64,000 nucleotides of DNA, from positions 2,691,251 through 2,755,250 of the forward strand of contig OZ243979.1 of NCBI GenBank assembly GCA_965214755.1. Direction: 5' to 3'. The notes below the pieces were generated by a model. The model saw only the letters and a list, made by a program, of their open reading frames with translations. It did not search any database and had not been told where the DNA came from. This stretch comes from an uncultured Candidatus Binatia bacterium. GTDB lineage: Bacteria > Desulfobacterota > Binatia > Bin18. Positions 21,476 through 42,395 of this stretch are shown one piece after another. A program made the translations under genes and the position numbers. Numbering within the stretch: the first letter of the stretch is position 1; the number at the start of each line of letters is the position of its first letter.

Positions 21476-21627
21476 GACGGATTTCCCCTCACCGGTGGAG
21501 GGCCGGACAACCACAGTGGGTTGCCCCTACCTTTTATCCCCTCTCCCGCTGGGAGGGAGCCAGGGTGAGAGTTCCTCTTGTGGACACGGTTTGACCAGGG
21601 TGCTTCTGGTCGCTACTTTGCTTATGT

Positions 21628-22585: not shown

Positions 22586-23913
22586 ATGATGCCAAGCCAG
22601 TTTATTACCAAGTGGCGCGTCTCAGAGTTGAAAGAACGCTCCGCGTCGCAAGAGCATTTCGTCGACCTGTGCCACCTGCTGGGTGAACCCACACCCGCCG
22701 AAGCCGCCTCCACCGGCGACCACTACTGCTTCGAGCGCGGTGCGCGTAAAGACACCGGCGGCAAGGGCTGGGCCGACGTGTGGAAGCGCCACCATTTTGC
22801 TGGGAGTACAAGAGCAAACGCAAGAATCTGGACGCAGCTTTCAATCAGTTGCGGCAATACGCCTTGGCGCTGGAAAACCCGCCGTTCTTGATCGTGTCGG
22901 ACATGGCGCGGTTCCGCATCCGTACCAATTGGACCAACACGGTCAGCCAGACCTATGAGTTCGAGTTGGACGGTCTCACTGACGCGGCTAATCGTGACAA
23001 GCTTAAATGGGCGCTATCCGACCCTGAGCGTCTACGGCCGGGCGAGAGCTGCCGGGCCCTTACCGAACGCGCAGCAATGACCTTTGCCTCGTTGGCGCAA
23101 TCGTTGTGCGAGCGCGGCCACGAGAGCCATGTTGTTGCGCATTTCGTCAATCGCCTAGTGGTCTGCATGTTCGCCGAGGATGTCGGCCTGCCACCGAACG
23201 ACATGTTCACTCGGATGCTGGAACAGGCCCACAAACAGCCCGAAGCGTTCGCCACTCTGGCCCGTGTTCTATTTGGGGCGATGGCCACGGGCGGCCTAGT
23301 CGACTTTGAGGCCGTGGCGTAGTTCAACAGCGGGCTGTTCGACGACAACACCGCCCTGCCGTTGGAGAAAGCCGACATTGACACCGTGCGCTCGGTGGCA
23401 GCGCTCGACTGGTCAGAGATTGACCCCTCAATTCTGGGTACGCTGTTCGAGCGCGGGCTTGACCCGGACAAGCGCTCTCAATTGGGCGCACACTACACCG
23501 ACCGGGATAAGATCATGCGGATTATCGAGCCGGTAGTGATCCGGCCTTGGCTGGCCGAGTAGGAAACTGCGAAAGCCGAGATCGTGTCCAGTCTGGAAAA
23601 GGAAACTGCCGCCAAGTCAGCCTCCGCACAGACCCGGCGGCGTAGACAGGCCAGACGCTTTCTGAGGGAATTCGTCGATCGGCTGCGGTCCTTCCCTATA
23701 CTCGACCCGGCCTGTGGTTCGGGCAATTTTTTGTATCTCGCCCTCCAGGCACTCAAGAATATTGAGCACCGGGTGCAGTTGGAGGTTGAGGCGTTCGACT
23801 TAGAGCGGGAGTTTCCCAAGGTCGGCCCGGCTAATGTCAAGGGAATTGAGATCAACCCATACACGGCGTGGCCTGTGGTGCGGCTCTTGAACCATTCGGG
23901 GCGTTCTCGATAA
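22586..23913 (+). pseudogene. MmeI-family (type IIL R-M / BREX PglX-like) N6-adenine DNA methyltransferase, N-terminal ~440 codons, disrupted and 3'-truncated
   Basis: FITKW..ELKERSASQEHFVDLCHLLGEPTP...GGKGWADVWKRHHFA | WEYKSKRKNLDAAFNQLRQYALALENPPFLIVSDMARFRI is the MmeI/PglX N-terminal module. A -1 frameshift near 22797 (expected ...HFAWEYK). An in-frame TAG at 23320 replaces the Y of the conserved (P)YFNGGLF motif (here VA*FNSGLF). A second in-frame TAG sits at 23560. SAM motif I FPILDPACGSGNFLYLAL is present. The ORF ends before motif IV (NPPF), so it is truncated. Confidence 0.65.
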
Positions 23914-23963
23914 ACGGCAGGCATGCTTCGGTTTGCGTTGACGACAAATCAGGGTAGGCTGGC

Positions 23964-24491
23964 TTGAAATTAAGCAAGCTACGGCGGGTAAAAGGCATGG
24001 TTAGCGATCAGACTCGAAACACCATTTGGCAAGGACTGTTGGATATGGCAAGGCTTGTCCGTTACTACGAAAGCCTGTCCGACCGGCATCGACGCAAGCA
24101 TTTTTGGATTCGCATCGTGCTACTTGCCGCGGCGGCTAGTGGTATTGCTGCCTTGCTTGATCTGTTTCCAGAGGTCATTCAGATTGTTGCCGGCGGTCTG
24201 GTCGCCCTATGTGTCGTATGGGATTTCGTGTCAGACTACGCAAAAAAAGCGGCCATCCTGCACGCAATCAGCATTGAATGCAGTGCTCTAGAGGTCGAAT
24301 GACAAGACTTGTGGGGCGATCTTGAGAACCTCGACGACACGGAGGCTCGACAACGCAACACCCGCCTGTCACGGAGACTCACCGAGGTCACCGGATGGGC
24401 GGGGCATACCGATATTCAAGAAGACCCAAAGCTGAATGAAAAATGCGAAGCCGCAGCCTACCGGGTGATGCAGGATCAGTATGGCGTCTGA
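23964..24491 (+). pseudogene. predicted 2-TM membrane protein (SLATT-like effector, tentative) interrupted by in-frame TGA at 24300
   Basis: LVRYYESLSDRHRRKHFWIRIVLLAAAASGIAALLDLFPEVIQIVAGGLVALCVVWDF has two predicted TM helices after an amphipathic N-terminus. The downstream ORF 24309..24491 is in the same frame, separated only by TGA. Confidence 0.3.
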
Positions 24492-24911
24492 CATGAGAAG
24501 ACGTACAGCCTCAGGGAAGCCCGCAAGGCCGGGTAAGACGCCACCACCTCCCCAGACCCAAGCCGGAGCAGGGCAAACCGAAACCCAACCAAGGCAAAAA
24601 GTAGCCCCTAGAGTTATTGCCGAAACCGACGGCTAGCACAGTTTTCACAGAGGTGTAGCGGGTAGGCGGCAAGCGTGTGAAGCGGGCAGCACCACTAGGC
24701 CGGAGGGCCTAGGCGAGCGGATTCGCTGGCCCTGCGGGAGCGGGTGGGAGCAGATCGGGAGGCGGGACTCCCGACCGCCGAGGGGCCCACAAGTAGCGGG
24801 TGCGTCCGGCGTGGGTCCGCCGCCTGCTACAGCGCTCCCGAGCGAGCGGCCACGTGGCCCCGCAGCGCCGGCCGCCGTTAAGCTAGTCCTCCCTACCACA
24901 GGAGGTGAGCC

Positions 24912-26046
24912 ATGCCTATTGATCTCGATACGTTCCTTGTCGCACTCTATACCATTGTGGACGATCTGTACCAGCAGCAGGCGGCCCCGGCCAAGCCGGT
25001 GCGCCGCGGTCCTCGGCCGACGGTGTCGGACAGTGAGGTGTTGCCCCTGGCGCTGTGTGCACAGTGGTGGGGGCGTTCGGAGCGGGCGTTCGTGCGCTAT
25101 GCGCGGGCGCAGTGGCGCACGTATTTTCCGCGCTTCCTCAGTCAGAGTGCATATAACCGGCGGTGCCGGGACTTGGCCGGGGTACTGGTGGCGCTGGTGC
25201 CAGCGGTGGCGCGGGAGCTGTGCGCGGCGAGGGCGGCGTATCAAGTGCTGGATACGGTGGCGGTCCCCTTGCTGCGCCGTTGTCGGGGGTGTCGGCGGCG
25301 ACTGTTTGGGGACGAAGCGGCCCTAGGGTGGGGTGGGAGTGATAAGGACTGGTACTATGGCTGTAAGTTGCTCTTGGCGGTACTGCCGAGGGGCGGGGTG
25401 ACGGGCTTCGTGCTCGCGCCAGCCAGTACCGAGGACCGCTGGCTGGCGGACGCCTTGCTGGGCTGGCGCGTCGCCCCCATGCCCGGCCCCGCCAGCGGCA
25501 GGACTTGCTCCGGCCACCGCGGGCCAACGGGACCCCGTATGTGGAGCCCACCGGGCCGCGGTGGCCGCAGTTGGGAGCCGGGGTCCCCAGCACGGGTCCC
25601 TATCTGGCCGATAAGGGCTTCTCGGGGGCGGGGTGGCAAACGCATTGGAAGCAGGACTATGGAGCACCCGTGCTCACGCCCCCGCAGGCGCGGGGTACAA
25701 CGTGGGCAAGACATTGCGGGCATCTTCAGGACTGACACGCCCCCGCAGGCGCGGGGTGCAACGCGCCACCGCTCCTTCTCCACCTCTTCGACCGGCCACG
25801 CCCCCGCAGGCGCGGGGTGCAACGAGTGCTCACGCCAAACGCCAACATAGCCGCTGGCGCCAGATCGTCGAGACCATCAATGGGCACCTCACCCGCACCT
25901 TTGGCTTGCACTTTCCAGGCGCCCGCACCCCCCACGGCTTACTGACGCGCATCGCGGCCAAGCTCGCCGCCGTCAATCTCGGCCTCTGGTTCAACCGTCT
26001 CTTCGGCCGCCCCCCATTGGCCCTCGCCACCCTCTTCCCTGCCTAA
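24912..26046 (+). pseudogene. IS982-family DDE transposase, disrupted (three frames)
   Basis: MPIDLDTFLVALYTIVDDLY...RRGPRPTVSDSEVL...WYYGCKLLLAV... | ...YLADKGFSGAGW...YGAPVLTPP | ...RWRQIVETINGHLTRTFGL...TRIAAKLAAVNLGLWFNRLFG match the IS982 pattern (M..L.ELF..i.c..DDF; DKGY; LiTP.rkN; IEt.F..LK). An extra GC-rich segment with a 14-bp inverted repeat (25512-25525 / 25553-25566) and a 122-bp repeat-spacer insertion break the frame. Confidence 0.75.
25675..25824. CRISPR. ectopic mini CRISPR-like array: 3 x 28-nt repeat (CACGCCCCCGCAGGCGCGGGGTGCAACG) + 2 unique 33-nt spacers, embedded in IS982 transposase ORF
   Basis: Repeats at 25675-25702 (one A/G variant), 25736-25763 and 25797-25824. Spacers are tgggcaagacattgcgggcatcttcaggactga and cgccaccgctccttctccacctcttcgaccggc. 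Period 61 bp. The repeat has the CCCCGC-loop-GCGGGG stem and a 3' ...CAACG tail like type I-E repeats. One repeat copy is native coding sequence (TPPQARGAT). Confidence 0.45.
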
Positions 26047-26092
26047 CAATGTGCATCACACGTACTGGGAGGGAGGCAGGATGAGAATTCCC

Positions 26093-28767: not shown

Positions 28768-28893
28768 ATGACTACCATCCTTGCGATAACCGCGTTCTTT
28801 CTCATCTTTCTGGTTCTGATCGGCCTGCTCGCCCAACGGGCAGACCGGATACGAGACGAGGCCGCTCAGGGGGAAGAGTCAAACCAGCAGTAA
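28768..28893 (+). CDS. small hydrophobic peptide (41 aa), not in ORF track
   Basis: ATG at 28768 preceded by GAAGGAGGG. Encodes MTTILAITAFFLIFLVLIGLLAQRADRIRDEAAQGEESNQQ, one predicted TM helix plus a charged tail. Stop TAA at 28891. Confidence 0.35.
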   Translation: MTTILAITAFFLIFLVLIGLLAQRADRIRDEAAQGEESNQQ

Positions 28894-28927
28894 GGAGTGT
28901 AAGCCAGAGAAAAGGGGGGAACAATCC

Positions 28928-30088
28928 ATGCCAGCGACGGCGGAACGGAAACCAGAGGCAAACAGCATTTTTCAACAGGCCGTTGCAACCACGCTCCGGG
29001 AGAACGGCGAGCTTGGGATGCAAGTCGCCGTGTATCTCGATGGCGAGCAAGTCGTGGATGTCTGGGGGGGTATTGCCGACGAGACCACTGGACGGGCAGT
29101 CGATGGAGATACGCTCTTCCCTTCCTTCTCTGTCATCAAGGCGACCACGGCAACCGCGCTCCATCTCCAGGCCGAACGGGGCTTGATTGAGTATGATACG
29201 CCTATTGCGCACTACTGGCCCGAGTTCGCGGCCCACGGCAAAGACACCGCAACCGTCCGGGATGCGCTGAGCCACCGCTTGGGAATTCCGTATATGCCCG
29301 AGGGCGTCACGCCTGAACTCATGAGTAATTATGACTGGATGGTCGAGCAACTGGCAAATATGAAGCCGCTCTTTGCGGCCGGCACGCGGAATGCCTATAT
29401 GTGTTACACTTTCGGCTGGGTCATTGCCGAGTGTGTGCGCCGGACCGATCCCAAACATCGGCCATACGGCACGTTTGTGCAGGAGGAGATATGTGCGCCC
29501 CTTGGCATTACGGATCTCTGGATCGGGATTCCTGAAGAAGTCGAACCGCGCGTGGCCCGGCTGAAGAACGCGCCTCCACTGCCATTACCGGCAGATGCGC
29601 CGATCCTGCGTGCCATGCCGCCTCAGGTCGGAGCGACTGAGGAGGTCTTCGGCCGTTCCGATATGCGACGCGGCTGCATTCCGGGTGCGCACGGTATTAT
29701 GAACGCCCGCAGCTCAGCCCGGCTGTTTGCCATGCTGGCCAATGGTGGAGAACTGGACGGCGTTCGCTTACTGTCCGAAGATCGGGTGAATTCGTTTAGC
29801 ACTCCACGTCCCGATACCGATCAGCCGGACACGGTGCTGGGCATGGCGATCCGCATGGGGACCGCCGGGCTGTGGGTCGGCGGGGTGAAAGATCCTCACT
29901 ATCCGTTCCGTCTCGCGGGTTTGAATCCACGTACGGTGCTCCATCCGGGCGCTGGCGGAGCAATTGCCTGGGCCGACCCGGACGCGCGCTTGGCGGTGGC
30001 GATCTGTCACAACCGGATGATCCATAATCCCACGCTAGCCTTCAAGCCCGTTCAGGCTGCGGTCGAGCAGGTCTTTAGGGTTGTATAA
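28928..30088 (+). CDS. serine hydrolase, class C beta-lactamase / PBP4*-related (EstB-like esterase family)
   Basis: LFPSFSVIKATTATALH contains the SxxK motif (SVIK). 386 aa is typical of beta-lactamase-related esterases. RBS-like AAGGGGGGAACAATCC before the ATG. Confidence 0.7.
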   Translation: MPATAERKPEANSIFQQAVATTLRENGELGMQVAVYLDGEQVVDVWGGIADETTGRAVDGDTLFPSFSVIKATTATALHLQAERGLIEYDTPIAHYWPEFAAHGKDTATVRDALSHRLGIPYMPEGVTPELMSNYDWMVEQLANMKPLFAAGTRNAYMCYTFGWVIAECVRRTDPKHRPYGTFVQEEICAPLGITDLWIGIPEEVEPRVARLKNAPPLPLPADAPILRAMPPQVGATEEVFGRSDMRRGCIPGAHGIMNARSSARLFAMLANGGELDGVRLLSEDRVNSFSTPRPDTDQPDTVLGMAIRMGTAGLWVGGVKDPHYPFRLAGLNPRTVLHPGAGGAIAWADPDARLAVAICHNRMIHNPTLAFKPVQAAVEQVFRVV

Positions 30089-30098
30089 GGAGAGCGGG

Positions 30099-30593
30099 AT
30101 GACGCTGCCTGATTCTGCAATCGTACTTCAGCGGGGAGAGGGCGACTCGGTAGCCATTGGGACTGGCACCCGGTGTACGTTTAAGGTGAGGGGAAAAGAC
30201 ACCGAGGGTCATTTCGGCCTGTTCGAGTATATAATGGAACCAGGGACTGAAGGACCGCGCCGCCATATTCACCGGCAGATGGCGGAAATATTCTACGTGG
30301 TCGAGGGCGCAATCGAACTCCTCGTCGGGGACGAGAAGATGACGGCCCGAGCCGGAACGACCGCCCTCGTCCCCAAGGAAGCGATACACGCCTTTTCCAA
30401 CCCAGGCGCGCAGCGCTCAGTATTATTGATTATGTTTTGTCCGGCCGACTCACGCGAGAAATACTTCGAGGGGCTGGCCGAACTCACCAAAGACGGACGA
30501 CCGCCGGACCAAAACGCTCTGCTTGAGTTGATGCGCAAGTATGACACGGAGCCAGTAGCGGAACCGCTCTATGGGGAGACGGAGACGCGGTAA
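30099..30593 (+). CDS. cupin domain protein
   Basis: ATG at 30099 after TAAGGAGAG. GPRRHIHRQMAEIFYVVEGAIELLVGDE...ALVPKEAIHAFSNPG shows cupin motifs G(X)5HxH...E and G(X)5PxG(X)2H. Confidence 0.6.
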   Translation: MTLPDSAIVLQRGEGDSVAIGTGTRCTFKVRGKDTEGHFGLFEYIMEPGTEGPRRHIHRQMAEIFYVVEGAIELLVGDEKMTARAGTTALVPKEAIHAFSNPGAQRSVLLIMFCPADSREKYFEGLAELTKDGRPPDQNALLELMRKYDTEPVAEPLYGETETR

Positions 30594-30857
30594 ACGATCT
30601 GAGATTTTTCGGACCGGTAAGTACCTCAGCGGAGACAAACGCCAGAATGGCCCCCTATTTATCTGTCAGCTTACTTAAAGCTGTCTCCTTCCTGGGCTGG
30701 CGCTTTCCGGGGCGACGAGTGTGCTCGTGTTGACGACGAGACCCATGGATTGGTTGGAGATGGATCAACCCGATTGATCTGCTCAAGGCCGTGCGCGAAG
30801 CGGTCATCTCAGGCGCTGAGCGCTTCGTGCATCAGTGATAATCACTCTCCCCTCGGC

Positions 30858-33800
30858 TCACTCGAACGAGGCTAGCAACCCTTCAAGCCGTTTACGGGTT
30901 GCGGATTGGACCCGAGAGATTCCAATAGCTTTCGCTATATCCCGCATAGGCTCCGCTGCTCCTGTCTCCTTCACATTCTGAATGAGTGCTCTTAATTCTT
31001 CTTGACAGATTTCCTCAGCCGACCGATAGGCGTCTTTGTCCTCAGGGGCTCTAAAGATTGTCCATTTGTCCGGCTGCGCTCCCGCAGGCCAGTAAAATTT
31101 TCTCTGGTCTTCTGTGCTAGTCTGAAACTTCTTCTTCTGTGCAATAGTGCGGACTCGGTCCTGTATTAATCTTCCCGCACGCTGAAAGCCGTGCGCACGC
31201 GCTACGCGTTTGATGAGGAGATCCTCGTGTATCGGTCCTTCGACCTCAATAATACGTGTGATGAGCGCAGAGAGTATTTGGGTATAGCTCTTTTCCTTGA
31301 ACGCTTCTGGACTGATCTGATCTTCAAACTCACTGAGATCGGTCGCTCGATAAACGGTTTTCAAAAACTGTCTATCTCCTGGAGCTGATCCAGCTCGTGA
31401 GGCCGTCAGTTCATACTGTTCACTCGGCTGCTTTTTTAACATTGTGTCGGCCTGCTCTTCGGCTTGAGCACGCGCGGTATTCAGTAGTTCCTCCAAGGCA
31501 TGCTGGAGCTTCTCCGTCGCACCAACTGGGTCAATCCACCAATCGGTTGACCATATCCTGAGGATGTTCCAGCCGAGTCTACGGAGTACCTGTTCCCTTA
31601 CCTTGTCACGATCTCTTGCCGTTGCAGATCGATGATAGGTTGCGCCATCGCACTCTATCCCGGCAAGGTATGCTCCTGGATTGTCAGGGTGTACCACGCC
31701 GAGATCGATCCGAAAGGCCGATACACCGATCTGACTCTCAACCCTCCAGCCCTTAGCCCGTAGACGATTGGCAACCGCTTTCTCAAAGGGGGAGTCATAC
31801 CCACCAACTGAACCATGGACGGCTTCTGCTAATGCATGCGGCCCACGCTCCGCATATTCCATGAAGTGCTTTAGGTCCCGTACTCCAACAGCTTGGGTGC
31901 GTGACAAATCAATCTGCTCAGGTCGGAAGCTGGAAAAAACGACGAGCTCGCTTCGGGCACGAGTAATAGCAACGTTCAGACGACGCTCCCCACCCTCTTT
32001 ATTCATTGGCCCAAAGTTCATCGTCATATGCCCCGTGCGATCAGGCCCATAGGTGAGCGAGAAAAACATGATATCGCGCTCGTCCCCTTGGACGCTTTCG
32101 AGGTTCTTTACAAAGACAGGCTCTGTAAGATCATCCGAGAAGAACGGCTCAATCTGCGGGGACTTGCGCCGTTCATTGTCCAGTAAATCCTCTATCAAGC
32201 GCTGTTGCTCCGAGTTAAATGTCACAATGCCAATAGATTTCTGTGGGTTGAGGGGAAGCTGATTCTTCAACCGTTCAACCACCTCAGCTACCACCGCTTG
32301 TGCCTCTATTGCATTGGACCGTGCCCTAGCCCGTTCATATACGGCATCTTCAACAAAACGAAATTTCACCGCGGTATCCTCGGTTCTCGCCGAGGGAAAT
32401 GTGATCAAACCGCCACTATAGTAATGGTGATTAGAGAATGCGATGAGACTTTCGTGCTCACTACGATAGTGCCAGTTGATCTTATGCTCCGGTAGACTGG
32501 CTCCGAGACACTCATCCAGGATGCTTTCCAGGTCGCCTTCCAGATCAACCTCTTCGTCTGCCTCTTCATCGGAGCGATTAAAGAAGCTTGTTGGGGGAAG
32601 CTGTTTGGGATCCCCAACAATCACCGCGTGCTTAGCCCGTGCGATAGCACCAATGGCATCCCAGATCGTGATTTGAGAGGCTTCATCAAAGATCACTATA
32701 TCGAACTGCGCCTGACCTGCGGGGAGGTATTGCGCTATCGAGAGTGGACTCATGAGCAGGCATGGGGTTAGCTGAGGAAGAGCGGTCGGCATCTCTGTGA
32801 CAAGTTGCCTGAGTGGCTTATGACGCTGTCTTTTCTCCAACTCGCGTTTCAGTATGCCGAACTCTGATCCACGCGCGACGTCATTTTTGGATGGTAAATC
32901 GCCACTCAAACGAGCTCTGATATATTGCCGAGTGATTACGGAGAATTTGTCATCGAGTGCGCGGAATTCCTTAACCGTTGCTTCATGCTCGGCAGAAACA
33001 AAGGTTCTGAGCACCTCGTCGTTATCCACAACTGCATTGATCCACCAGCGTGCATAGTTGGTCTCAAAAGCTTGCTCCACACCGCCCAGGTCAATTCCCC
33101 CATTCTCCAGTGCAAGGATGAGATTTTCGAGGCCCAACTCGCTTGCTTCATTTCGCACTCTCCGCCAAGCACACCATGTGTTCAATTTGGCCTTATTATG
33201 GATGATTACGGACAATGATACGTTTGTATTTGAGAGCCAATCCTCCAGTTCTCCTTGGCCAAGCCGGTCAAACGCCTCATTACCGGCGAGAGAGGCGAAT
33301 TTTCTGAGTTGATTTTGAAAGTTACTCCACTCTTTTGAAAGCCTCTGGCTAGTGCGCCCAATCTGGCTGGTATCTTCTAATAGATCATTGCCGTCCTCAA
33401 GCAATCTTTTGAGCTTGGCGCGGATCTCAACCAAACTGTCTGTATCCTGTCCTAGTGCTGCAATGGCACGACGAATTTTGCATGCAATTTCCAGTTCTTC
33501 TTGGACCTGGGACACTTCCGTGTTGAAGCCTTCCCACACAGCGACTGCAGATAACCTTTCCTCTAAGCTCGCCAGCGTCTGTCCAAAAGTTCTTAAAGAA
33601 TCAAAAAGAGCTAAATCTTCTGCAACGTCTGGTGTATGTCGTGCGCCACCAGCAGATCGCAGATCTTTTCTTATGAAAAGTTTTTGAAAGAATGACAGTG
33701 GCCACCAGGTGCGAATGGCGGCTTTCCAACGCGTTGCGAGATCGTCAATAGGGATATTTTGCCACGCCTGTTCGGCATAACTCCCCGAGAGTTGCTGCTC

Positions 33801-36683
33801 AGTCTTCCGGTATTCCTGAAGAGCCGTACATGCCTGCTCAAGCGCAGAAATAGTCTGTCCAGCACCGGACTCAGCCGCGTAGCCCATGTGTCTTCTGAAA
33901 CATAGTGGGAGGACTTCAGCCAACTCAGCGAGAGCCATTAATTGATCGTAGTTGTGGCCCGTGGATGAAAGTCCCAAGTCCAATGCAAGAGTGGCGACAG
34001 GCTCTACAAGTGCTTTCGCTGTCCGCGAGAGGGTTGCACAATGGACGAGCAGTTGTTCCTGCCAACCGGGTGACCAATCGCTTGTATGGACACTACTAAG
34101 CGGACTACCGGAAATCTCGCCAAGTTCTGCCACATTGATATCAATCCGGTGGACTACCTCCCTCAGTTGGTCTAAGTCTTCGGAACTGTGCGTATCTGGA
34201 TGTGACCACTGGAGAGAAACAAATGGCATACTCTCGTCGTGGACAATGCGGCCCATAGCGAGATAGGGTGTCAGGCCGTTCGCATATTGATGATGAAGCC
34301 GCTGGACAAATCTATTCAGCTTGTCACGATGTTTCTTCAAACGCCCTGCTTCTGTTTTCCACTCGTGAATGGTGTGGGCGCCTGACCGATCCCATGCCTG
34401 TCTTAATTGCTCCAACACGGCAGTCTTCCGTGCTTTGTTTGAATGCAGTTCCAGGCAGAATTCGCCAAGACCAACCTCCCTGAGGCGTCTATACACCACA
34501 TCAAGTGCAGCAATTTTTTCAGAGACAAAAAGGACTTTGCGTCCCTCTGCAAGATTATGCGCAATCATATTCGCAATAGTCTGAGACTTGCCTGTCCCTG
34601 GCGGGCCAAGAAGAACGAAATCCTTTCCCTTTGCGCAAGCAAGCACCGCTGAGAGCTGTGAAGAGTCCGCAGGCAACGGGGTTAAAATATCTGCCGGACT
34701 GTACCTCTCGTCTAAGGTCTCTGGATTAGGAAATTCTATTTCACCGGCGTACGGATCGCGAGGCGTTTCTATTAAATGCCGAACAATATCATTTTCCTTA
34801 AGATGAGCGGTACGATCGACTAAATCTTTCCACATCAAATATTTTGCGAACGAAAACAGGCCCAGGACAATCTCCTCAACGACCTCGAAGCCTTGAACCT
34901 CTTTCACTTCCTGTCGAACTTTGTTCCAAACGAGAGTTACGTCTATACCATGGCTATCTTCGGGAAGTGCTCCATCGAAGCCTTTGATGTCTAAATTAAA
35001 ATCCTGCCTCAACATTTCTAACAGCGTAGTATTGAATCTGGGCTCGTCATCGTGGAGAGAGAGGCGGACGCCTGATCGGACACTTTTTCGCTCCAAGGTC
35101 ACGGGAATGAGAATCAGTGGTGCCCGGAATTTACGATCCGAACTATCGTCTTTTTTCCAAACAAGAAAACCGAGAGCGAGGAACAGAGTGTTCGACCCGC
35201 CTTCTTGTAAATCACTACGTGCGGTTCGGAATAGTTCCACCAGCCGACTCTCCAACTCCTTTTTATCAAGTTCGACGAGCAATTCGTCCCGTAATAAAGC
35301 TGCTTTTGCGTACTCTTCTGTCAGATGCTCGCCGGTTCGCTGATGATGTAAGGTGCTGGAGCGGCCGTCTTCAACCTCCATATTAGGCGCTGACACGATT
35401 TTCATCTTCTTACCGTCAGCTAAGCGGTCTTCCAGCGTGCTAAGGTCTGGACAAAAAATCTTTACTGACTTTTTCGTCGCGCGGAAATTCAACAAGCGAT
35501 TACGTAAAGAAAGATCAAGCAGCTTTCTCTGCCATCGATCCAACCGGGTCTGTGGCGAAGTTTCCTCAGGTTGTATTTCTCCAATTGGGGTATCAAAATC
35601 CGGCAGACCCTCTGGTGCAGCTTCGAGTGGGTCGTCTCGATGCGCTACCGCTGACTCAGTACTGCCCTCTGCTTGTGGTGCCTGACTGGCAAGCGGCCTC
35701 ACCCTTTGCATCCGAGCACGACGAATATCCGTCGCCAAGATAAAGTCCTGCTCACGCTCTTCTGCAATCTGCCGCTTGGCTTCGTCAATCGCTGCAGAAA
35801 AAGGTGCGGGAGGGTGGTTTGTTGCTAATGTTGTCTCAAAAACTAACAATTCCTTTAGATCGATCCGTTTTCGAAGAGTACTGGCCTCATCCACAACGAG
35901 CTTGGAAAATTGCTCTGGCTGGAGCCACGCACCGGCAAAAGCGTGTCCTGCGATGAAGACAAGGATAGGGTTGAAGCCTGCTTGTTCTAGAGTGGCTGCC
36001 AAGAATAGCGCCAAGTCAAGACAAGTGGCTCTACCAGAATCAATAATTTGAGACGGTAAACGAATTTTCTGCCCAGTTGTCTCAAAGCTCGCTGGTGGAA
36101 GTGCGTAATCGAGCCGAAGGCTCGTGAGCGCTGACCAGATGGCTGAGATGATTTCCCAAACCCGCTGTCGAGAACCAGAGGTGTAGCCGTCAATGTGAGG
36201 TGGCCTTCCAGCCTGTCGCAGAATTTCACTCGTACTTTTGAGAAGCTTATCCACAGCCGGATCGTTGCTGGCGCAAAAGGCTGCCAGCAACTCTGGCATA
36301 AAATGAACGCCTCCCCACTCGTTATGCGCCAGCAGTTCAACAGGCTGCGTGGCCGAAGCGAGCCCGGTTGAATCGTTATCCTTAGTATGGAGGGTAAAGC
36401 GAGCGTTTCCAGAAACTGCTTCATTGAGGCCTAACAGATATTCCCCGCTCAGCATAATATCCAAGTCATCTAGGTGCAGGATATCATCGGTTCGCAAGCA
36501 GTCGATTGTCCAGTTTCTTGGTGTGAAAAAAATTGGGTCGGATGAGAACTCCAGAGTCAGATTCTCATAGTCAGACTCTGAGACGTTATGAAGAGACAAC
36601 TCTCTAATAAGCGGTACCGAGTTTTGATGCGACGCAAAAGTGATCTTCTTGGCAACGGTTGCGCAAATTTGAATACCGCTCAT
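30858..36683 (-). CDS. giant DUF4011 - SF1 (Upf1-like) helicase - DUF559/Vsr-like PD-(D/E)xK endonuclease - DUF3320 protein; Hhe-like single-gene antiphage candidate
   Basis: 1941 aa, uninterrupted. DUF4011-like RKLLDLSLRNRLLNF. Walker A LLGPPGTGKSQTIANMI. Helicase motifs VIVGDPKQLPPT, SVQGDERDIMFFS and NVAITRARSELVVFSS. C-terminal nuclease ...IDLGVVHP...GIECDGATYH...LRRLGWNILRIWSTDWWIDP. Terminal DUF3320-like region. Gene GC is clearly lower than the flanks. Confidence 0.7.
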   Translation of the reverse strand: MSGIQICATVAKKITFASHQNSVPLIRELSLHNVSESDYENLTLEFSSDPIFFTPRNWTIDCLRTDDILHLDDLDIMLSGEYLLGLNEAVSGNARFTLHTKDNDSTGLASATQPVELLAHNEWGGVHFMPELLAAFCASNDPAVDKLLKSTSEILRQAGRPPHIDGYTSGSRQRVWEIISAIWSALTSLRLDYALPPASFETTGQKIRLPSQIIDSGRATCLDLALFLAATLEQAGFNPILVFIAGHAFAGAWLQPEQFSKLVVDEASTLRKRIDLKELLVFETTLATNHPPAPFSAAIDEAKRQIAEEREQDFILATDIRRARMQRVRPLASQAPQAEGSTESAVAHRDDPLEAAPEGLPDFDTPIGEIQPEETSPQTRLDRWQRKLLDLSLRNRLLNFRATKKSVKIFCPDLSTLEDRLADGKKMKIVSAPNMEVEDGRSSTLHHQRTGEHLTEEYAKAALLRDELLVELDKKELESRLVELFRTARSDLQEGGSNTLFLALGFLVWKKDDSSDRKFRAPLILIPVTLERKSVRSGVRLSLHDDEPRFNTTLLEMLRQDFNLDIKGFDGALPEDSHGIDVTLVWNKVRQEVKEVQGFEVVEEIVLGLFSFAKYLMWKDLVDRTAHLKENDIVRHLIETPRDPYAGEIEFPNPETLDERYSPADILTPLPADSSQLSAVLACAKGKDFVLLGPPGTGKSQTIANMIAHNLAEGRKVLFVSEKIAALDVVYRRLREVGLGEFCLELHSNKARKTAVLEQLRQAWDRSGAHTIHEWKTEAGRLKKHRDKLNRFVQRLHHQYANGLTPYLAMGRIVHDESMPFVSLQWSHPDTHSSEDLDQLREVVHRIDINVAELGEISGSPLSSVHTSDWSPGWQEQLLVHCATLSRTAKALVEPVATLALDLGLSSTGHNYDQLMALAELAEVLPLCFRRHMGYAAESGAGQTISALEQACTALQEYRKTEQQLSGSYAEQAWQNIPIDDLATRWKAAIRTWWPLSFFQKLFIRKDLRSAGGARHTPDVAEDLALFDSLRTFGQTLASLEERLSAVAVWEGFNTEVSQVQEELEIACKIRRAIAALGQDTDSLVEIRAKLKRLLEDGNDLLEDTSQIGRTSQRLSKEWSNFQNQLRKFASLAGNEAFDRLGQGELEDWLSNTNVSLSVIIHNKAKLNTWCAWRRVRNEASELGLENLILALENGGIDLGGVEQAFETNYARWWINAVVDNDEVLRTFVSAEHEATVKEFRALDDKFSVITRQYIRARLSGDLPSKNDVARGSEFGILKRELEKRQRHKPLRQLVTEMPTALPQLTPCLLMSPLSIAQYLPAGQAQFDIVIFDEASQITIWDAIGAIARAKHAVIVGDPKQLPPTSFFNRSDEEADEEVDLEGDLESILDECLGASLPEHKINWHYRSEHESLIAFSNHHYYSGGLITFPSARTEDTAVKFRFVEDAVYERARARSNAIEAQAVVAEVVERLKNQLPLNPQKSIGIVTFNSEQQRLIEDLLDNERRKSPQIEPFFSDDLTEPVFVKNLESVQGDERDIMFFSLTYGPDRTGHMTMNFGPMNKEGGERRLNVAITRARSELVVFSSFRPEQIDLSRTQAVGVRDLKHFMEYAERGPHALAEAVHGSVGGYDSPFEKAVANRLRAKGWRVESQIGVSAFRIDLGVVHPDNPGAYLAGIECDGATYHRSATARDRDKVREQVLRRLGWNILRIWSTDWWIDPVGATEKLQHALEELLNTARAQAEEQADTMLKKQPSEQYELTASRAGSAPGDRQFLKTVYRATDLSEFEDQISPEAFKEKSYTQILSALITRIIEVEGPIHEDLLIKRVARAHGFQRAGRLIQDRVRTIAQKKKFQTSTEDQRKFYWPAGAQPDKWTIFRAPEDKDAYRSAEEICQEELRALIQNVKETGAAEPMRDIAKAIGISRVQSATRKRLEGLLASFE

Positions 36684-36901
36684 ACAGACCTCTGGGTTCT
36701 TTTGGATAAACTCCCTACCTCAATCGGGCTAAACAGCACTTAACACCTGGGAGTATCCTACAATAGTACTACCAGATTTCCTTAGAGAGTCTTGTTGAGA
36801 GGAGACACCGTTGGTCCAACATTGGGGGAACTGTCTTTGTGCGCTCTCGCCCTATTGAGATCTAACTTGACCAAGTCACTGGACCTAGTTAAAGTTTCTC
36901 C

Positions 36902-37135
36902 ATGAAAACAATGCTCGTGTCTGAATTCAAGGCAAAGTGCATCGCTGTACTCAAGGAAGTCAATCGTTCCCGCGAGCCCATGATTGTGCCTCTGCGTGGG
37001 CAACCCCTGGTGACTATCCAGCCATTCGCAGCACTCCCTTCGGGCAAACAACTCGGTGAGCTGAAGGGCAAGATGACTATTCACGGTGACCTCGTCCACA
37101 CTGACTCGACCGATGATTGGGACATGCTGGCGTGA
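36902..37135 (+). CDS. type II antitoxin, Phd/YefM family
   Basis: MKTMLVSEFKAKCIAVLKEVNRSREPMIVPLRGQPLVTIQP. GTGA overlap with the downstream PIN gene. Confidence 0.55.
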   Translation: MKTMLVSEFKAKCIAVLKEVNRSREPMIVPLRGQPLVTIQPFAALPSGKQLGELKGKMTIHGDLVHTDSTDDWDMLA

Positions 37136-37531
37136 CGCTGTTGCTCGACACCCATGTCTGGATCTGGTCGCAGGAGCAGCCTGAGAAGTTAGGACGACAA
37201 ACAGCGCGAGCACTGCTGGACCCAGAGTACACCGACACTATCTGTACAATATCCACGCTGGAAGTTGCACGTCTGTTAGCCGTTGGTACAATCTCACTGG
37301 CCATCCCACTCAGCGCCTGGATTGCCCATTCCCTGAGCAGTCTGGACGCAACAACATTACCCGTGACCCATGCGATTGCCGCCGAAGCGTACGCCCTTCC
37401 CGCCACCTTCCATAAGGACCCGGCAGATCGTATCCTCGTGGCAGCAGCCGTCTGCATGAACTGACCCTGTTGACGGCTGATGAACGGATTCTGCACTACC
37501 CCCATGTTCGGACACTGGATGCCCACAGTTA
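37132..37531 (+). CDS. vapC: type II toxin VapC (PIN domain) with apparent -1 frameshift near the C-terminus (~37452)
   Basis: MTLLLDTHVWIWSQE... is a PIN N-terminus. The annotated frame stops at 37464 (..AAAVCMN*), but the canonical C-terminus LHELTLLTADERILHYPHVRTLDA continues in the 0 frame to TAG 37531. Confidence 0.6.
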
Positions 37532-37617
37532 GAGGAGCGCTGTTCATCCCCCGGTACGGGTCGTCTGACAAGAGAACACGCCTTGAGCGTCACACCACGC
37601 TGGGCTAACGTGTCGGC

Positions 37618-39237
37618 ATGAACGCCCAACAGGAATACCAGCCGCAAGAGACGCTCGCCTTCGACAATCGCTTTACGCGGGAGCTGCCCGCCGACCCTCA
37701 AACCGGAAACGCTCGCCGTCAGGTCACGCGGGCATGTTATTCCCGTGTCCAGCCGACAAAAGTCGCTCAACCCCAGTTGGTTGCCTACGCCTGGGAAGTG
37801 GCCGAGGAATTGGGCCTTTCCCGCGCATTCTGCGAGTCGGACGATTTTCTCCGCATCTTCTCGGGGAACCGGGTGCTGGAGAGCATGGACCCCTACGCAA
37901 TGTGTTACGGCGGTCATCAGTTCGGCAACTGGGCCGGGCAGCTCGGGGACGGCCGGGCCATTAACCTGGGCGAGATTATCGGCCCGACCGGAAGGCGCTG
38001 GATGGTCCAACTCAAGGGGGCTGGCCTGACGCCCTATTCGCGCAGTGCGGACGGACTAGCCGTCCTACGCTCGTCCATCCGCGAGTTCTTGTGCAGCGAA
38101 GCCATGTATCATCTCGGTGTCCCGACCACCCGCGCGCTCAGCCTGGTCTCGACCGGTGAACACGTCATCCGCGACATGTTTTATGATGGCAATCCCAAAC
38201 CCGAGCCGGGAGCCGTGGTATGTCGGGTCGCGCCGTCTTTTGTGCGCTTTGGCAATTTTCAGATATTTGCCGCCCGCGGAGAAATCGACGTCTTACAGCA
38301 GTTAGTAGACTACACCATCCGTACCGACTTTCCTCACCTAGGCGAGCCGTCCCGTGCGACCTATCTGACCTGGTTTGAGGAGGTCTGCCGGACAACCGCC
38401 CAGATGATTGTGCACTGGCTGCGGGTCGGCTTTGTCCACGGGGTGATGAACACGGATAATATGTCGATCCTGGGGTTGACGATTGACTACGGCCCGTACG
38501 GCTGGCTGGAAGACTATGACTCCAACTGGACGCCCAATACCACCGATGCCGCGAGTCATCGCTACGCCTTTGGCAAGCAGCCCCAGATTGCCCATTGGAA
38601 CCTGGTCCAGCTTGCCAACGCGCTCTACCCCCTGATTGAACAGACGGAACCCCTAGAAAAAGCGCTGAGCAGTTATGTCCAGGAATTTGAGTCGTGTTGG
38701 CAGACCATGATGGCCCACAAACTGGGACTCCAGTCCTTCAAGCCCGACCTGGACGATACCCTGGTCGCTGGCCTGCTGGAAATTCTGCAACTGGCCGAGA
38801 CCGATATGACCATCTTCTATCGGCGGCTGGCGAGCATTGATCTCGACGCCAAGCCTGTAGACCAGATCGACGACGCCACTTTCATACAACCGCTATTGGA
38901 CGCCTACTACGTCCCGGAGCAGTTGACCCCGGAGACAACGGCCCGCATCGCCGCATGGCTGCGTCGCTATCACGACCGGGTGAGAGAAGACGGGACGGAT
39001 GACGAGACGCGCCGGAAACGGATGAACGCGGTCAACCCGAAATATGTGCTGCGCAACTATCTCGCCCAGCTCGCTATCGACAAGGCCGAGCAGGGCGACC
39101 CCTCCATGGTGCACGCCTTGCTGGAACTCCTCCGCCATCCCTATGATGAACAACCCGACAAAGAAACCTACGCCCAAAAGCGGCCCGACTGGGCCCGCCA
39201 GCGTCCCGGCTGTTCCATGTTGTCGTGCAGTTCGTGA
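37618..39237 (+). CDS. selO: protein adenylyltransferase SelO (YdiU/UPF0061 family)
   Basis: 539 aa. GDGRAINLGE, QLKGAGLTPYSR, FVHGVMNTDNMSILGLTIDYGPYGWLE and the C-terminus ...CSMLSCSS* are family-typical (the kinase-fold AMPylator). Confidence 0.85.
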   Translation: MNAQQEYQPQETLAFDNRFTRELPADPQTGNARRQVTRACYSRVQPTKVAQPQLVAYAWEVAEELGLSRAFCESDDFLRIFSGNRVLESMDPYAMCYGGHQFGNWAGQLGDGRAINLGEIIGPTGRRWMVQLKGAGLTPYSRSADGLAVLRSSIREFLCSEAMYHLGVPTTRALSLVSTGEHVIRDMFYDGNPKPEPGAVVCRVAPSFVRFGNFQIFAARGEIDVLQQLVDYTIRTDFPHLGEPSRATYLTWFEEVCRTTAQMIVHWLRVGFVHGVMNTDNMSILGLTIDYGPYGWLEDYDSNWTPNTTDAASHRYAFGKQPQIAHWNLVQLANALYPLIEQTEPLEKALSSYVQEFESCWQTMMAHKLGLQSFKPDLDDTLVAGLLEILQLAETDMTIFYRRLASIDLDAKPVDQIDDATFIQPLLDAYYVPEQLTPETTARIAAWLRRYHDRVREDGTDDETRRKRMNAVNPKYVLRNYLAQLAIDKAEQGDPSMVHALLELLRHPYDEQPDKETYAQKRPDWARQRPGCSMLSCSS

Positions 39238-39241
39238 GCTT
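39206..39241. repeat. copy 1 of ~36-bp direct repeat = native 3' end of selO (att-like)
   Basis: cggctgttccatgttgtcgtgcagttcgtgagcttc. Re-occurs at 40459..40494 with 2 mismatches, and a degenerate third match sits at about 42337..42354. Confidence 0.8.
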
Positions 39242-39426
39242 CAGATAAATCCGAACAGCGGTGATGAAAAAAGAGAAAACCATGCCTGTCGTCGAAAAAC
39301 TGAAGGAGCACCGGAAGAAAGAGTATCGGAAGGCGTGCCACTGGTACAACTTGTGCTGTATTTAGGAAGCTCTCGCACGGTAGATATCGGAAAGAGAATC
39401 AACACTCTGGCTCCGACAGGGAGCGG

Positions 39427-40069
39427 TTGCCCAAAGACGGAAGAAATCTTATCCATACCAACCCGCGCGCCTTCCTTGTCGGAGCAGTTTTCAACAGGGG
39501 GGTGGATTGGGAGAAGGCGTGGGAAATCCCCTGCCGCATTAACCAGAAGGGGAAGTTGGACGCATCCAAGCTCGCTAAAATGAAAAAGTCCGAGCTAGTA
39601 CGCCTCCTGAAGCGCCTCCGTGTCAGGCCTCGATACGTCGATCAGGGAGCAGAGACACTAGAGGACGTCGCCACGCTTGTGGAGAGAGACTTTGCTGGTG
39701 ACGCAGCCGCAATCTGGCGGGACGCTTCACCAGCATCCGTTGAAAAGAGGCTCCAACGCATCAGGTACGTCGGCCCCGGTATCGCATCTATGGTCATCCG
39801 TATACTGCACGACGACTGTGGGATGTTCAGGGGACAGGAGATAGATATCAAACCCGCTGTGCGTGCGTGTTAGGCGCGTGTTTGAACGCACAGGGCTAAC
39901 TCATTCCAACTCAGAGAATGAGGCTAGAAATGCCGCGCGGAGGCTGAACCCCGATTTTCCCGGAGAACTGGACTGGCCAGCGTTTGACATTGGCGGGGAG
40001 TGGTGTTCTGCATCTAATCCCAGGTGTCCAAGCTGTCCACTGACAACGGTATGCCCCAAGCGTCTCTAA
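39427..40069 (+). pseudogene. HhH-GPD superfamily (endonuclease III-like, [4Fe-4S]) DNA glycosylase, frameshifted
   Basis: Two overlapping frames: ...RYVGPGIASMVIRILHDDCGMFRGQEIDIKPAVRAC* and (V)RVRRVFERTGL...LDWPAFDIGGEWCSASNPRCPSCPLTTVCPK. The Cys-x7-Cys-x2-Cys-x5-Cys cluster matches the EndoIII FCL motif. The shift falls inside gctgtgcgtgcgtgt, a (GTGC)n slippage-prone tract near 39862. Confidence 0.55.
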
Positions 40070-40187
40070 CCCCCGACATTGAATGCTACCGCACACCTAC
40101 GCGTCGGAATGCGGTAGAATTCTTAACCATCCAGCGAAGAACTGTACGACCAAGTCTACGACCTGCTGTGCGACGGCGAGGTGGACA

Positions 40188-40433
40188 ATGACAATCCCGA
40201 CAAAATTGTTAGACGTAGTGGCCCCAATGGTTGACTTGCCTGACTATAAGCTCTGGCGTGGGCAGGTTGGGACGGTCGTAGAAATTCTGGCAGATGGTGA
40301 AGCGTTTGAAGTCGAATTTTGTGACCGAGAGGGCCGGACATACGAGTCGGTGGGCCTTCGCCCGGATCAGATCATGGTGTTGCACTATGGGCCTTGGGCG
40401 TCTCAACCGCTATCCACGCCGGAGACCGCCTAG
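40188..40433 (+). CDS. DUF4926-like small protein
   Basis: Start at internal ATG (MTIPTKLLDVV...). LPDYKLWRGQVGTVVEILADGEAFEVEFCDREGRTYESVGLRPDQIMVL resembles the DUF4926 pattern (GtVV...ayeVEF.d.eG). Confidence 0.35.
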   Translation: MTIPTKLLDVVAPMVDLPDYKLWRGQVGTVVEILADGEAFEVEFCDREGRTYESVGLRPDQIMVLHYGPWASQPLSTPETA

Positions 40434-40458
40434 AAGGTTGAGGATACCCCCAGACGGC

Positions 40459-40494
40459 CTCGGCTGTTCCATGCTGTCGCGCAGTTCGTGAGCT
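40459..40494. repeat. copy 2 of selO 3'-end direct repeat (att-like)
   Basis: cggctgttccatgctgtcgcgcagttcgtgagctgc. The spurious ORF 40294..40491 ends in GCSMLSRSS*, copying the SelO tail. Confidence 0.8.
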
Positions 40495-40577
40495 GCACTC
40501 GCGGACAAAAGAATAGGCCGCCGTCTCAAGACTCACCTGTTGGCGGCAGCATCGCTCTTGGTGTAGGATTCAGACTA

Positions 40578-41300
40578 ATGGAAGTCCGACTACAAAGACC
40601 CCAGCGAGAAGACCTTTCGATACGCTTTACGTTGGCCCCATTCATCACCGAATGGGTCTCGACGCAAGCGAATTTCATCACCGCAATCGCCCAGAAATTC
40701 GGTGACTGGCTCTCGGTTCGTCCACAGGATTTTTCCTCAAATCCTTCAGGTAATCTTGGAGAAGCGTGGTGCATGTACAGGATATTCGGAGGCACAAGCA
40801 CCATCGTCCTCCGTCCTGATACCCTAGAGTTGAATTTTGTGAACCTAAACGAAAACGACCGTCAATCTGTCATCGCAATAATCCGACGGTCAGGCTCTGT
40901 GTTACAGCAAGATATTGGCGGCTATACACGGTGTTACGTTTCGTTGACCTCCAACCGGCATGCCGAAATAGCTGGTGACGGGAATGCCGATCGTTACCTC
41001 AATCAGTTCGCATTGAAACACGCTGCCGATATGGTCAAAACTGATTCTGATATGGAATATAAACCCACAGCAAGAGTCGTACTCTCGCATAAAGGTGGAG
41101 ACTGGTCGGTCCATCGATTGGTCGAAAAGTCCGATTTCCTGCCTGATGGTCTATTCGTCCACACGCTCGTATTCATTCCGTCATTCGACCTTGCGGAACT
41201 TGATGAACAAGGGGAATTAATAGATCGAATCTTTGAGCAGGCCGATAAAGCGGTCGAACTGAGCTACGTCGGAGACAGCGATGCAGACGCCAACTCTTAG
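40578..41300 (+). CDS. hypothetical protein (ORFan, low-GC islet)
   Basis: Internal ATG chosen (MEVRLQRPQ...); the open frame extends upstream to 40488. No recognisable motifs. Overlaps the next gene by 20 bp. Confidence 0.3.
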   Translation: MEVRLQRPQREDLSIRFTLAPFITEWVSTQANFITAIAQKFGDWLSVRPQDFSSNPSGNLGEAWCMYRIFGGTSTIVLRPDTLELNFVNLNENDRQSVIAIIRRSGSVLQQDIGGYTRCYVSLTSNRHAEIAGDGNADRYLNQFALKHAADMVKTDSDMEYKPTARVVLSHKGGDWSVHRLVEKSDFLPDGLFVHTLVFIPSFDLAELDEQGELIDRIFEQADKAVELSYVGDSDADANS

Positions 41301-41889
41301 CCCTTCTGCCCCTGATGGGGGCTTCGCTCATGATTGGGAAGTACGGAAAAACAGCGAGCAATCGGAGATAATCAATCACGCGCAGTCGCTCGAACATTCT
41401 CCCTCGAATTTTCGGCGTCCGGGACTATTCGCTAATACTCTCCCGGGCTTATACGAACAGGTCATCACGAGAGAGCTGGATAACCAACAGGAAGCCCTTC
41501 GCCGCATACGGGTAGACAGCTTAGACGCACGGTGGCTTGCGGACGCGATAGAGGAGTTGGAAGAGATAGATGATGAGGTGGCCGAGGAAGCACTGCCGGA
41601 GCTTGCTGCTGACACCAAGAAACACGCCCGCAGGATCGTTTTCGCACTTACAAAGCAGCCTATCGCCCCGACCATCTACCCCACTACGGACGGCGAGGTC
41701 GCTCTGTATTTCAAGTCACCGGTTACGGCATCTTCTGTTTTGATTCTGGTAGGAAATGATGGACAGGCTACGTGTTTTTCGTATATCAACGGGAAAAATC
41801 GGCGTGCCCGGTACGACGACGCGGCGGACCTCCCGGACGAATTTGTAAAGGCACAGATACAGGCGCTCAAGGAACCAGCGTTTCCGTAA
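41281..41889 (+). CDS. hypothetical protein (ORFan), acidic central region
   Basis: 202 aa. The central LADAIEELEEIDDEVAEEALPELAAD is highly acidic and helical. No family recognised. Translationally coupled to the upstream ORF. Confidence 0.3.
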   Translation: MQTPTLSPSAPDGGFAHDWEVRKNSEQSEIINHAQSLEHSPSNFRRPGLFANTLPGLYEQVITRELDNQQEALRRIRVDSLDARWLADAIEELEEIDDEVAEEALPELAADTKKHARRIVFALTKQPIAPTIYPTTDGEVALYFKSPVTASSVLILVGNDGQATCFSYINGKNRRARYDDAADLPDEFVKAQIQALKEPAFP

Positions 41890-41902
41890 AATACGCAAAC
41901 AT

Positions 41903-42308
41903 GCAACTTCCGGACTTGAAGGATTCCGAGGATATTGGGAGAAGCGTTTTCTCAAGTCGAGACGCGAGGCGAGCGAGAAACGGAAGAGTCGTCCCTGGTG
42001 TCTTTCTCGAACGTCTGGAAGCGGTCTCGATCTCCGTAGATCGGATGAATCACGCGCCGTTGCCCGTTCTCGCCAACCTCTCGAAAGAGAGAGGACGTAG
42101 CCGGGGAAAAGACTTCTATGGTTGGGCAACCTTGACAGTCAGAGACGCGGCATCCAACGGAAGAACCGTGGAGGCGACTCCTACCGATGTCAACATATAC
42201 CACGCCGATATCATTCTTCAGCTGCCCGATGATAATGAACGGCGCGATCAACAGAAGCAGCACGCCAACGAGTTGGCCGCACTCACGCAGTGGAGGGATG
42301 CACCCTAG
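41903..42308 (+). CDS. hypothetical protein (ORFan)
   Basis: ATG 41903 (MQLPDLKDSED...); the track's longer ORF begins at 41772. No motifs recognised. Confidence 0.3.
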
Positions 42309-42395
42309 CCATCTTGGTTTGTCGTGTGAGACTTTACAAGAGCCGCACAGTTCGTGACCTCGACGGGATCAGGAGAAATTCAGAAGGAGAAAGCA

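Follow-up and report, generated by a model that had tools for sequence, protein, structure and literature searches.

What is the longest open reading frame (ORF) in a 64,000-nt stretch of the chromosome of an uncultured Candidatus Binatia bacterium (contig OZ243979.1, positions 2,691,251 to 2,755,250; hereafter the window), and how did it come to lie there? The ORF, at window positions 30858-36683 on the minus strand, encodes a helicase-nuclease of 1941 amino acids (aa), and the next longest has ~713 codons. A first-pass annotation, made from the sequence alone, had singled it out as the largest and uninterrupted ORF, which it is, and had proposed that it was a single-gene defence candidate resembling the antiphage system Hhe. 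We conclude that the gene most probably encodes a single-protein antiphage or anti-mobile-DNA enzyme of the ProA family (NF058533/PDC-S37), carried on a ~7-kb horizontally acquired island in a chromosomal toxin-antitoxin and defence hotspot between a cupin gene and selO. The gene belongs to this family, is intact and under purifying selection, is polymorphic for presence and absence among relatives, and has homologues that are tied to defence islands and plasmids.

To define the architecture of the protein, we combined profile searches, a structural model and conservation among homologues. Pfam searches located DUF4011 at residues 387-558 (E value 3e-53), the Walker-A-containing AAA_19/AAA_30 at residues 674-729, AAA_11 at 1324-1366, AAA_12 at 1397-1584, the Vsr-type MTES_1575 REase family (PF18741) at 1633-1730 (2.3e-36) and DUF3320 (PF11784) at 1795-1841 (6e-18). 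In a PDB sequence search, the nearest solved sequences were the Upf1-like superfamily 1B (SF1B) helicases IGHMBP2, Sen1, Upf1, DNA2 and nsp13. The gene and its modules are as follows, with ratios of non-synonymous to synonymous substitution rates (dN/dS) here and below taken against a 95%-identical copy in a related metagenomic contig (L001):

30858..36683, minus strand: intact ProA-family gene, with an ATG start, 1941 aa and no internal stop
36324..36683, minus strand: N-terminal beta-sandwich domain (residues 1-120)
35694..36311, minus strand: predicted transglutaminase-like (papain-like) core (residues 125-330), with Cys221, His247 and Asp265
34668..35558, minus strand: DUF4011 and an extension reaching the helicase (residues 376-672; dN/dS 0.04, the most constrained module)
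34404..34667, minus strand: first part of helicase domain 1A (residues 673-760), with Walker A GPPGTGKS at 693-700 and motif Ia VLFVSEK at 717-723
32754..34403, minus strand: poorly conserved insertion of ~550 residues that splits helicase domain 1A (residues 761-1310)
31914..32753, minus strand: remainder of the SF1B helicase core (residues 1311-1590), delimited by AAA_11, AAA_12, PDB matches to IGHMBP2, Sen1 and Upf1, and invariant columns
31494..31787, minus strand: Vsr-like PD-(D/E)xK endonuclease, MTES_1575 REase (residues 1633-1730)
31161..31301, minus strand: DUF3320, PF11784 (residues 1795-1841)

The start codon is preceded, 7 nt upstream, by GAGG. The helicase also retains motifs II (DEASQ, 1333-1337), III (GDPKQLPPT, 1357-1365), V (VQGDERD, 1531-1537) and VI (RRLNVAITRA, 1567-1576), and the nuclease retains D1660, E1677-x-D1679, H1683 and an RD pair at 1690-1691; all of the helicase and nuclease motifs fall in columns that are invariant in at least 98% of 121 homologues. 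These results bear out the Upf1-like helicase motifs, the terminal DUF3320 and the pairing of a helicase with a PD-(D/E)xK nuclease that the first-pass annotation had read from the sequence. Its "DUF559/Vsr-like" module holds for the Vsr-like half and not for DUF559, which scored only 0.0025, below its cut-off. DUF3320 has been described as a winged helix-turn-helix (PMC3710099), and a weak second helix-turn-helix-like stretch lies near residues 1900-1937 (HTH_AsnC-type, E value 0.029). The insertion at residues 761-1310 had no Pfam match. In three homologues (P0003, P0007 and P0058), internal tandem duplications of 100-200 residues were seen inside this helical insertion; they fit the idea that it is a fast-evolving and possibly specificity-determining part of the protein.

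Curated family models were then compared. The NCBIfam equivalog NF058533.1, "anti-phage protein ProA" (curated in 2026), scored 2329.9 bits against a cut-off of 1500, with residues 16-1924 aligned to positions 2-1903 of a 1903-position profile. In contrast, the Hhe equivalog NF042953.1 reached 893.1 bits (E value 4e-268), in two separate stretches, against a cut-off of 2000. When the PADLOC-DB v2 models were scored as hidden Markov models, outside the PADLOC pipeline and its thresholds, the best was PDC-S37 at 1322 bits (residues 378-1938 on positions 7-1531 of 1550; the N-terminal module lies outside the span of this model), followed by Hhe (PDLC02194) at 622 bits (E value 5e-187); MkoA and MkoC also matched, over helicase domain 2A. 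Since the protein passes the ProA cut-off and fails that of Hhe, and a reference Hhe does the reverse (see below), we assign the gene by these profile scores to ProA, as a sister of Hhe and not as Hhe itself.

The architecture agrees with this assignment. An N-terminal module with a Cys-His-acid triad, DUF4011 with SF1B motifs I, Ia, II, III, V and VI, and an MTES_1575 nuclease followed by DUF3320 are all present, and ProA proteins (NF058533.1; PDC-S37; "DUF3320 domain-containing protein" in GenBank) show the same order of beta-sandwich, transglutaminase-like core, DUF4011, split SF1B helicase, Vsr-like nuclease and DUF3320, with the same single-gene organisation. The window protein is 44-59% identical to full-length members in Proteobacteria, Chlorobi and plasmids and has no structural difference from them; identity of 95% is found only with the metagenomic copies, and the assembly index held no record identical to the exact protein. 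The 95% homologue (P0001), a Spiribacter homologue (P0010), P0003 and a Klebsiella plasmid "DUF3320 domain-containing protein" likewise pass ProA and fail Hhe. Likeness to Upf1-like SF1B helicases and helicase-nucleases (IGHMBP2, Sen1, Upf1, DNA2) and to Mokosh MkoA/MkoC is confined to the motor core, with helicase motifs I-VI, whereas their accessory domains, insertion and nuclease type differ. The gene is no new kind of system; it is an ordinary addition to the catalogued family ProA/PDC-S37.

What, then, is the N-terminal module, which the first-pass annotation overlooked? Residues 1-375 contain no significant Pfam domain, although residues 1-330 are strongly conserved. An AlphaFold model of the module, built with 20 homologues (mean predicted local distance difference test, pLDDT, 88.3; predicted template-modelling score, pTM, 0.83), consists of a beta-sandwich at residues 1-120 and then an alpha/beta domain at ~125-330. 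The best four PDB matches found by Foldseek were to transglutaminase 2, with both domains aligned (E values 3e-4 to 1e-3); axonemal transglutaminase-like proteins were listed as well, and Pfam gave a weak match to the transglutaminase-like DUF553 (E value 0.053). Cys221 and His247 are invariant and Asp265 is kept in at least 90% of sequences, in sets of 20 to 121 homologues. The model places Cys221 at a helix N-terminus and His247 at the beginning of a strand, and the predicted positions of the three residues are those canonical for a papain/transglutaminase triad. A profile search with the module recovered 1841 cluster representatives at E values of 1e-30 or lower; among the 150 matches listed, the module is at or near the N-terminus of proteins of ~1700-2400 aa or of shorter fragments.

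The same module order, with no associated methyltransferase, was recognised computationally by Anantharaman et al. (2013) in giant actinobacterial HEPN-transglutaminase-SF1-Vsr-winged-helix proteins (MTES_1575; PMC3710099), and the transglutaminase/SF1/Vsr/winged-helix architecture has been predicted to be a modification-independent restriction system (PMC3710099). The actinobacterial proteins carry an N-terminal HEPN domain, whereas the window protein begins with the beta-sandwich and is ~200 residues shorter. A HEPN domain in the window protein was considered and rejected: no HEPN family in Pfam matched residues 1-374 at an E value of 10 or lower, and the model shows a beta-sandwich at 1-120.

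Based on this architecture we propose a model in which the ProA protein would act alone and independently of modification. The C-terminal winged-helix DUF3320, DUF4011 or both would engage nucleic acid and recognise invading or aberrant DNA, the Upf1-like SF1B motor would translocate in the 5′-3′ direction, and the Vsr-like PD-(D/E)xK domain would cut DNA, this being the killing activity. A candidate for setting specificity is the long, variable stretch inserted into the helicase. The transglutaminase-like module, with its putative Cys-His-Asp triad, would most likely be a second catalytic (peptidase-type) effector, or else a trigger-sensing or regulatory module. A bolder version, which we offer tentatively from the Cys221-His247-Asp265 residues that thousands of homologues keep, is that the module may be an active peptidase or deamidase that senses a phage protein or serves as the second effector, such that ProA would couple attack at the protein level and at the DNA level in one polypeptide; our literature search found no experimental description of such coupled attack by one polypeptide.

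The roles might also be reversed: the decisive effector could be the N-terminal transglutaminase-like cysteine enzyme, or the protein could act by abortive infection aimed at host components, with the nuclease as an auxiliary. The conservation of Cys221, His247 and Asp265 would suit such a role, as would the status of the module as a hallmark of ProA that Hhe lacks, and Anantharaman et al. proposed protein cleavage as an additional line of defence (PMC3710099). However, the nuclease and the helicase (dN/dS 0.06) are at least as constrained as the module (0.16), Hhe needs its nuclease while having no such module, and the module has no known substrate. We consider a defence protein built around the cysteine enzyme unlikely, and retain the ProA reading in which DNA cleavage would be the killing step.

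The composition of the locus and its state in relatives were examined next. The ProA-family gene has a GC content of 0.503 and a third-position GC content (GC3) of 0.495, compared with 0.575-0.624 and 0.67-0.75 in the flanking genes, in agreement with the low GC content reported by the first-pass annotation. Four metagenomic contigs that are ~90-93% identical to the window (L001-L004) also have the gene at this site, with 95% identity to the window copy. In another relative (L085, MKWU01000066.1) the helicase is absent and the equivalent of window positions 28874-30597 is joined straight to 37568-40436; the junction reads TAAACGA, from the cupin stop, followed by GAGAACACG, and lies ~45 nt upstream of the selO ATG. 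Because this empty site joins both flanks, the limits of the island can be placed as follows:

30598..37570, no strand assigned: genomic island of 6973 bp, holding the helicase-nuclease gene and Phd/VapC, between the cupin stop (30593) and the selO leader
30735..30806, minus strand: remnant of a small antitoxin-like gene, reduced to its final ~24 codons (DDRFAHGLEQINRVDPSPTNPW); L171 and L172 have the whole gene (87 aa)

Two further relatives, L171 (a 4.8-Mb contig, GCA_965243855.1) and L172, also lack the helicase and have a scar of ~500 bp between cupin and selO. The cupin gene and selO are therefore adjacent where the island is absent, as the first-pass annotation had predicted, directly in L085 and across the ~0.5-kb scar in L171 and L172. 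The three helicase-less relatives are ~90% identical to the window, a divergence similar to that of L001-L004. The island has a GC content of 0.510, compared with 0.580 in the rest of the window, and is the lowest-GC 7-kb stretch within it. Presence or absence at a fixed site among close relatives, together with this atypical composition, identifies the segment as a genomic island.

In the scar (L171 11667-12223; L172 5723-6278), the antitoxin-like ORF of 87 aa is whole and runs on the minus strand; the other piece is the opening ~96 nt of the Phd region. The counterpart of this ORF in the window is the remnant just downstream of the helicase stop; in a blastn comparison, L171 11738-11814 and window 30732-30808 are 79% identical. 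These features suggest that an older toxin-antitoxin locus gave way in part to the helicase cassette. At the island borders we found no tRNA, integrase, flanking direct or inverted repeats or Rfam RNA, and only a TCTGA microrepeat; scans for promoters and terminators gave matches at chance level. Borders without a tRNA, an integrase, terminal repeats or a known RNA fit an exchange of cargo by recombination through the flanking genes, which we infer to be the route. The cupin-selO spacer is thus a small hotspot, at which four or more allelic states are seen. In one of the relatives the neighbouring selO is itself altered: in L001 (6968-8600) it is split into ORFs of 339 and 193 aa; the window, L002, L171 and L172 have an unbroken selO of 539 aa.

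Selection on the gene was estimated from the comparison with L001. The overall dN/dS is 0.15. DUF4011, the nuclease and the later segment of the helicase core have values of 0.04-0.06, whereas the opening segment of that core (673-760) is free of non-synonymous changes; the N-terminal module stands at 0.16. The highest values, 0.31-0.37, belong to the 550-residue insertion (0.31) and to the C-terminal region, the least constrained part. We therefore conclude that the gene is maintained by purifying selection.

Thousands of distant full-length homologues, 48-59% identical, are spread over Proteobacteria, Chlorobi and other groups. P0003 has as neighbours a serine recombinase, an SNF2-REase, an AAA_15/21 ATPase and an MmeI/Eco57I gene; the Spiribacter P0010 lies with Prok-E2/JAB, HNH and BrxR genes; and P0096 lies with an Eco57I methylase, HepT/MNT, a UvrD-PDDEXK gene and an AAA_13 ATPase. 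In all three contexts (3/3) the homologue is solitary among defence genes, with no conserved partner gene. A homologue, Hhe-type matches included, occurs on 490 plasmid records, 214 of them conjugative, and 72 plasmid records cover at least 80% of the protein. In two plasmid contexts, one copy was flanked by insertion sequences (IS) and the other was on a plasmid resembling an integrative and conjugative element (ICE), near a ParDE module. Matches in phage records were few (3 of 50,697), and nothing close to a Klebsiella ProA gene was found in 5,426 complete E. coli genomes.

These distributions bear on a second alternative, that the protein is a housekeeping or mobile-element-maintenance helicase-nuclease, engaged in DNA repair, replication restart or the upkeep of plasmids and ICEs and not in immunity. 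Upf1/DNA2-like helicase-nuclease fusions do serve DNA and RNA metabolism, a DUF4011 gene is a core gene in Pseudomonas aeruginosa, and many homologues reside on conjugative plasmids and on the ICE-like plasmid. Nevertheless, the gene is patchy among relatives that are ~90% identical, its composition is foreign, its homologues lie among restriction-modification, BrxR, HepT/MNT and ATPase-nuclease genes, the curated databases name it antiphage, and the neighbourhoods showed no conserved partner gene for repair or replication. A housekeeping role is, in our judgement, improbable.

Several points do weigh against reading ProA as an immune protein. The antiphage label rests on the curated database name, homology to Hhe and genomic context. 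In the literature that could be searched, no paper on antiphage ProA or PDC-S37 was found, experiments included. We infer the whole of the mechanism proposed above, including the substrate, the trigger and the roles of the accessory domains. Finally, since all Pseudomonas aeruginosa isolates have a DUF4011 gene in their conserved core, not every relative in the family need be a defence gene.

Is the gene a bona fide Hhe (Gao et al. 2020), of the same family and with the same domain order, as the first-pass annotation proposed? The two proteins have in common DUF4011, an SF1B helicase with a long insertion, an MTES_1575/Vsr nuclease with an ExD..H signature and a single-gene organisation, and the E values against both Hhe models given above are extremely low. 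The window protein is 34% identical over 358 aa and 40% identical over 612 aa to the reference Hhe of a Klebsiella plasmid (WP_009309938.1), within the core only. The nuclease motif IECDGATYH aligns with IECDGAAYH of the reference Hhe, so that a homologous helicase-nuclease core with a conserved nuclease glutamate is present; this glutamate may correspond to the published Hhe residue E1731. Hhe protects against lambda, T3, T7 and PhiV-1, and its nuclease point mutant E1731A is inactive (10.1101/2022.06.16.496414).

However, the reference Hhe, used as a control, scored 2731 bits with the Hhe model and 1131 bits with ProA; thus each protein fails the curated cut-off of the other family, and PADLOC too ranks PDC-S37 above Hhe for the window protein. 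In the reference Hhe, DUF4011 already begins at residue 30; the N-terminal beta-sandwich/transglutaminase-like module of ~330 residues is missing, as is DUF3320. The window protein carries ~375 extra N-terminal residues, this module included, as well as the C-terminal DUF3320, and plasmid Hhe genes align to just 48% of it. The domain order is therefore that of ProA. At the level of curated family thresholds the Hhe reading is refuted, and we regard it as very improbable overall. The earlier proposal was sound as to kind, a helicase with a Vsr-like nuclease on an acquired low-GC island, and wrong as to family. In its plasmid (NZ_AP022007.1; L173 1-2130), the reference Hhe lies directly 3′ of two DUF262-domain genes and 5′ of an IS66 element.

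That the ProA-family gene is a decaying, non-functional relic, as suggested by the adjacent defence-type pseudogenes (VapC and an MmeI-like gene), is scarcely credible, given an unbroken 5.8-kb reading frame, catalytic motifs that are all intact and a dN/dS of 0.15 against the 95%-identical orthologue.

The remainder of the island is a toxin-antitoxin module divergent from the helicase gene:

36902..37135, plus strand: Phd/YefM-like antitoxin gene, 77 aa (PhdYeFM_antitox 5.4e-5, below the Pfam cut-off)
37132..37532, plus strand: VapC (PIN) toxin pseudogene, with a GTG start in a 4-nt GTGA overlap with the Phd stop and a -1 frameshift near 37447-37450

When the frameshift was repaired in silico, VapC matched PIN above the cut-off (1.6e-11, 45 bits). 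The Phd-VapC neighbour of the first-pass annotation is thus present as a module, though not as an intact type II pair, the toxin being frameshifted and the Phd match lying below the Pfam cut-off; its broader claim, of a horizontally acquired defence island beside a toxin-antitoxin module, was right. In L001-L004, Phd is kept as an orphan gene. In L001 (8770-9781), and also in L002-L004, a different, convergent pair of an antitoxin (66-76 aa) and a PIN protein (142 aa) replaces the VapC of the window. Because VapC gives way to another pair in these four contigs, toxin-antitoxin cargo has been swapped within one island.

A second insertion, at window positions 21576-26064, is absent from the helicase-less L085, L171 and L172. 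It contains:

21652-21921: Phd-like antitoxin
21918-~22304: PIN toxin
22586-23868: MmeI-like pseudogene of a type IIG restriction-methylase, broken by a frameshift and two in-frame stops and ending after ~45% of its length
24912-25850: GC-rich (0.69) IS-like ORF with a weak DDE-transposase match, adjoining the MmeI-like pseudogene

The IS-like ORF probably interrupted the MmeI-like gene. "Many broken genes" around the helicase, as first described, overstates the case: the broken genes are VapC and the MmeI-like gene only, both of defence type. A pseudogene-rich genome was considered and ruled out, since all 15 of the 15 scorable syntenic L171 genes at window positions 15.7-45.7 kb match at full length in a single frame, and 87% of the window lies within ORFs of 100 aa or more. 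The frameshifts themselves are probably real, a view suggested by the contig names of the relatives, which resemble those of HiFi metaMDBG assemblies.

Two smaller patches also stand out. Downstream of selO, window positions 40180-42310 are variable and hold ORFs of 270, 202 and ~140-178 aa (GC3 0.51-0.58). None of the three ORFs has a Pfam match, and the one at 41281-41889 has a weak PADLOC match to PDC-M32A (1.5e-6). The gene content of this stretch varies among L001, L002, L003 and L171, and it may be a third small hotspot. A low-GC patch at 3392-6071 (GC 0.48-0.49, GC3 0.50-0.53) holds four short ORFs; the two that were searched had no Pfam match, and the ORF at 4016-4780 has a weak match to PD-Lambda-3_A in PADLOC (1e-5). 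This patch may be another acquired islet.

Together, these comparisons correct an easy mis-annotation, Hhe for ProA, and provide a cleanly bounded natural example of ProA, with occupied, scarred and empty alleles of one chromosomal site. The cupin-selO site and the second site 9 kb away are small defence and toxin-antitoxin hotspots, at which cargo is gained, swapped and degraded. Within the family, the conserved transglutaminase-like module is the feature of ProA that most deserves an experimental test.

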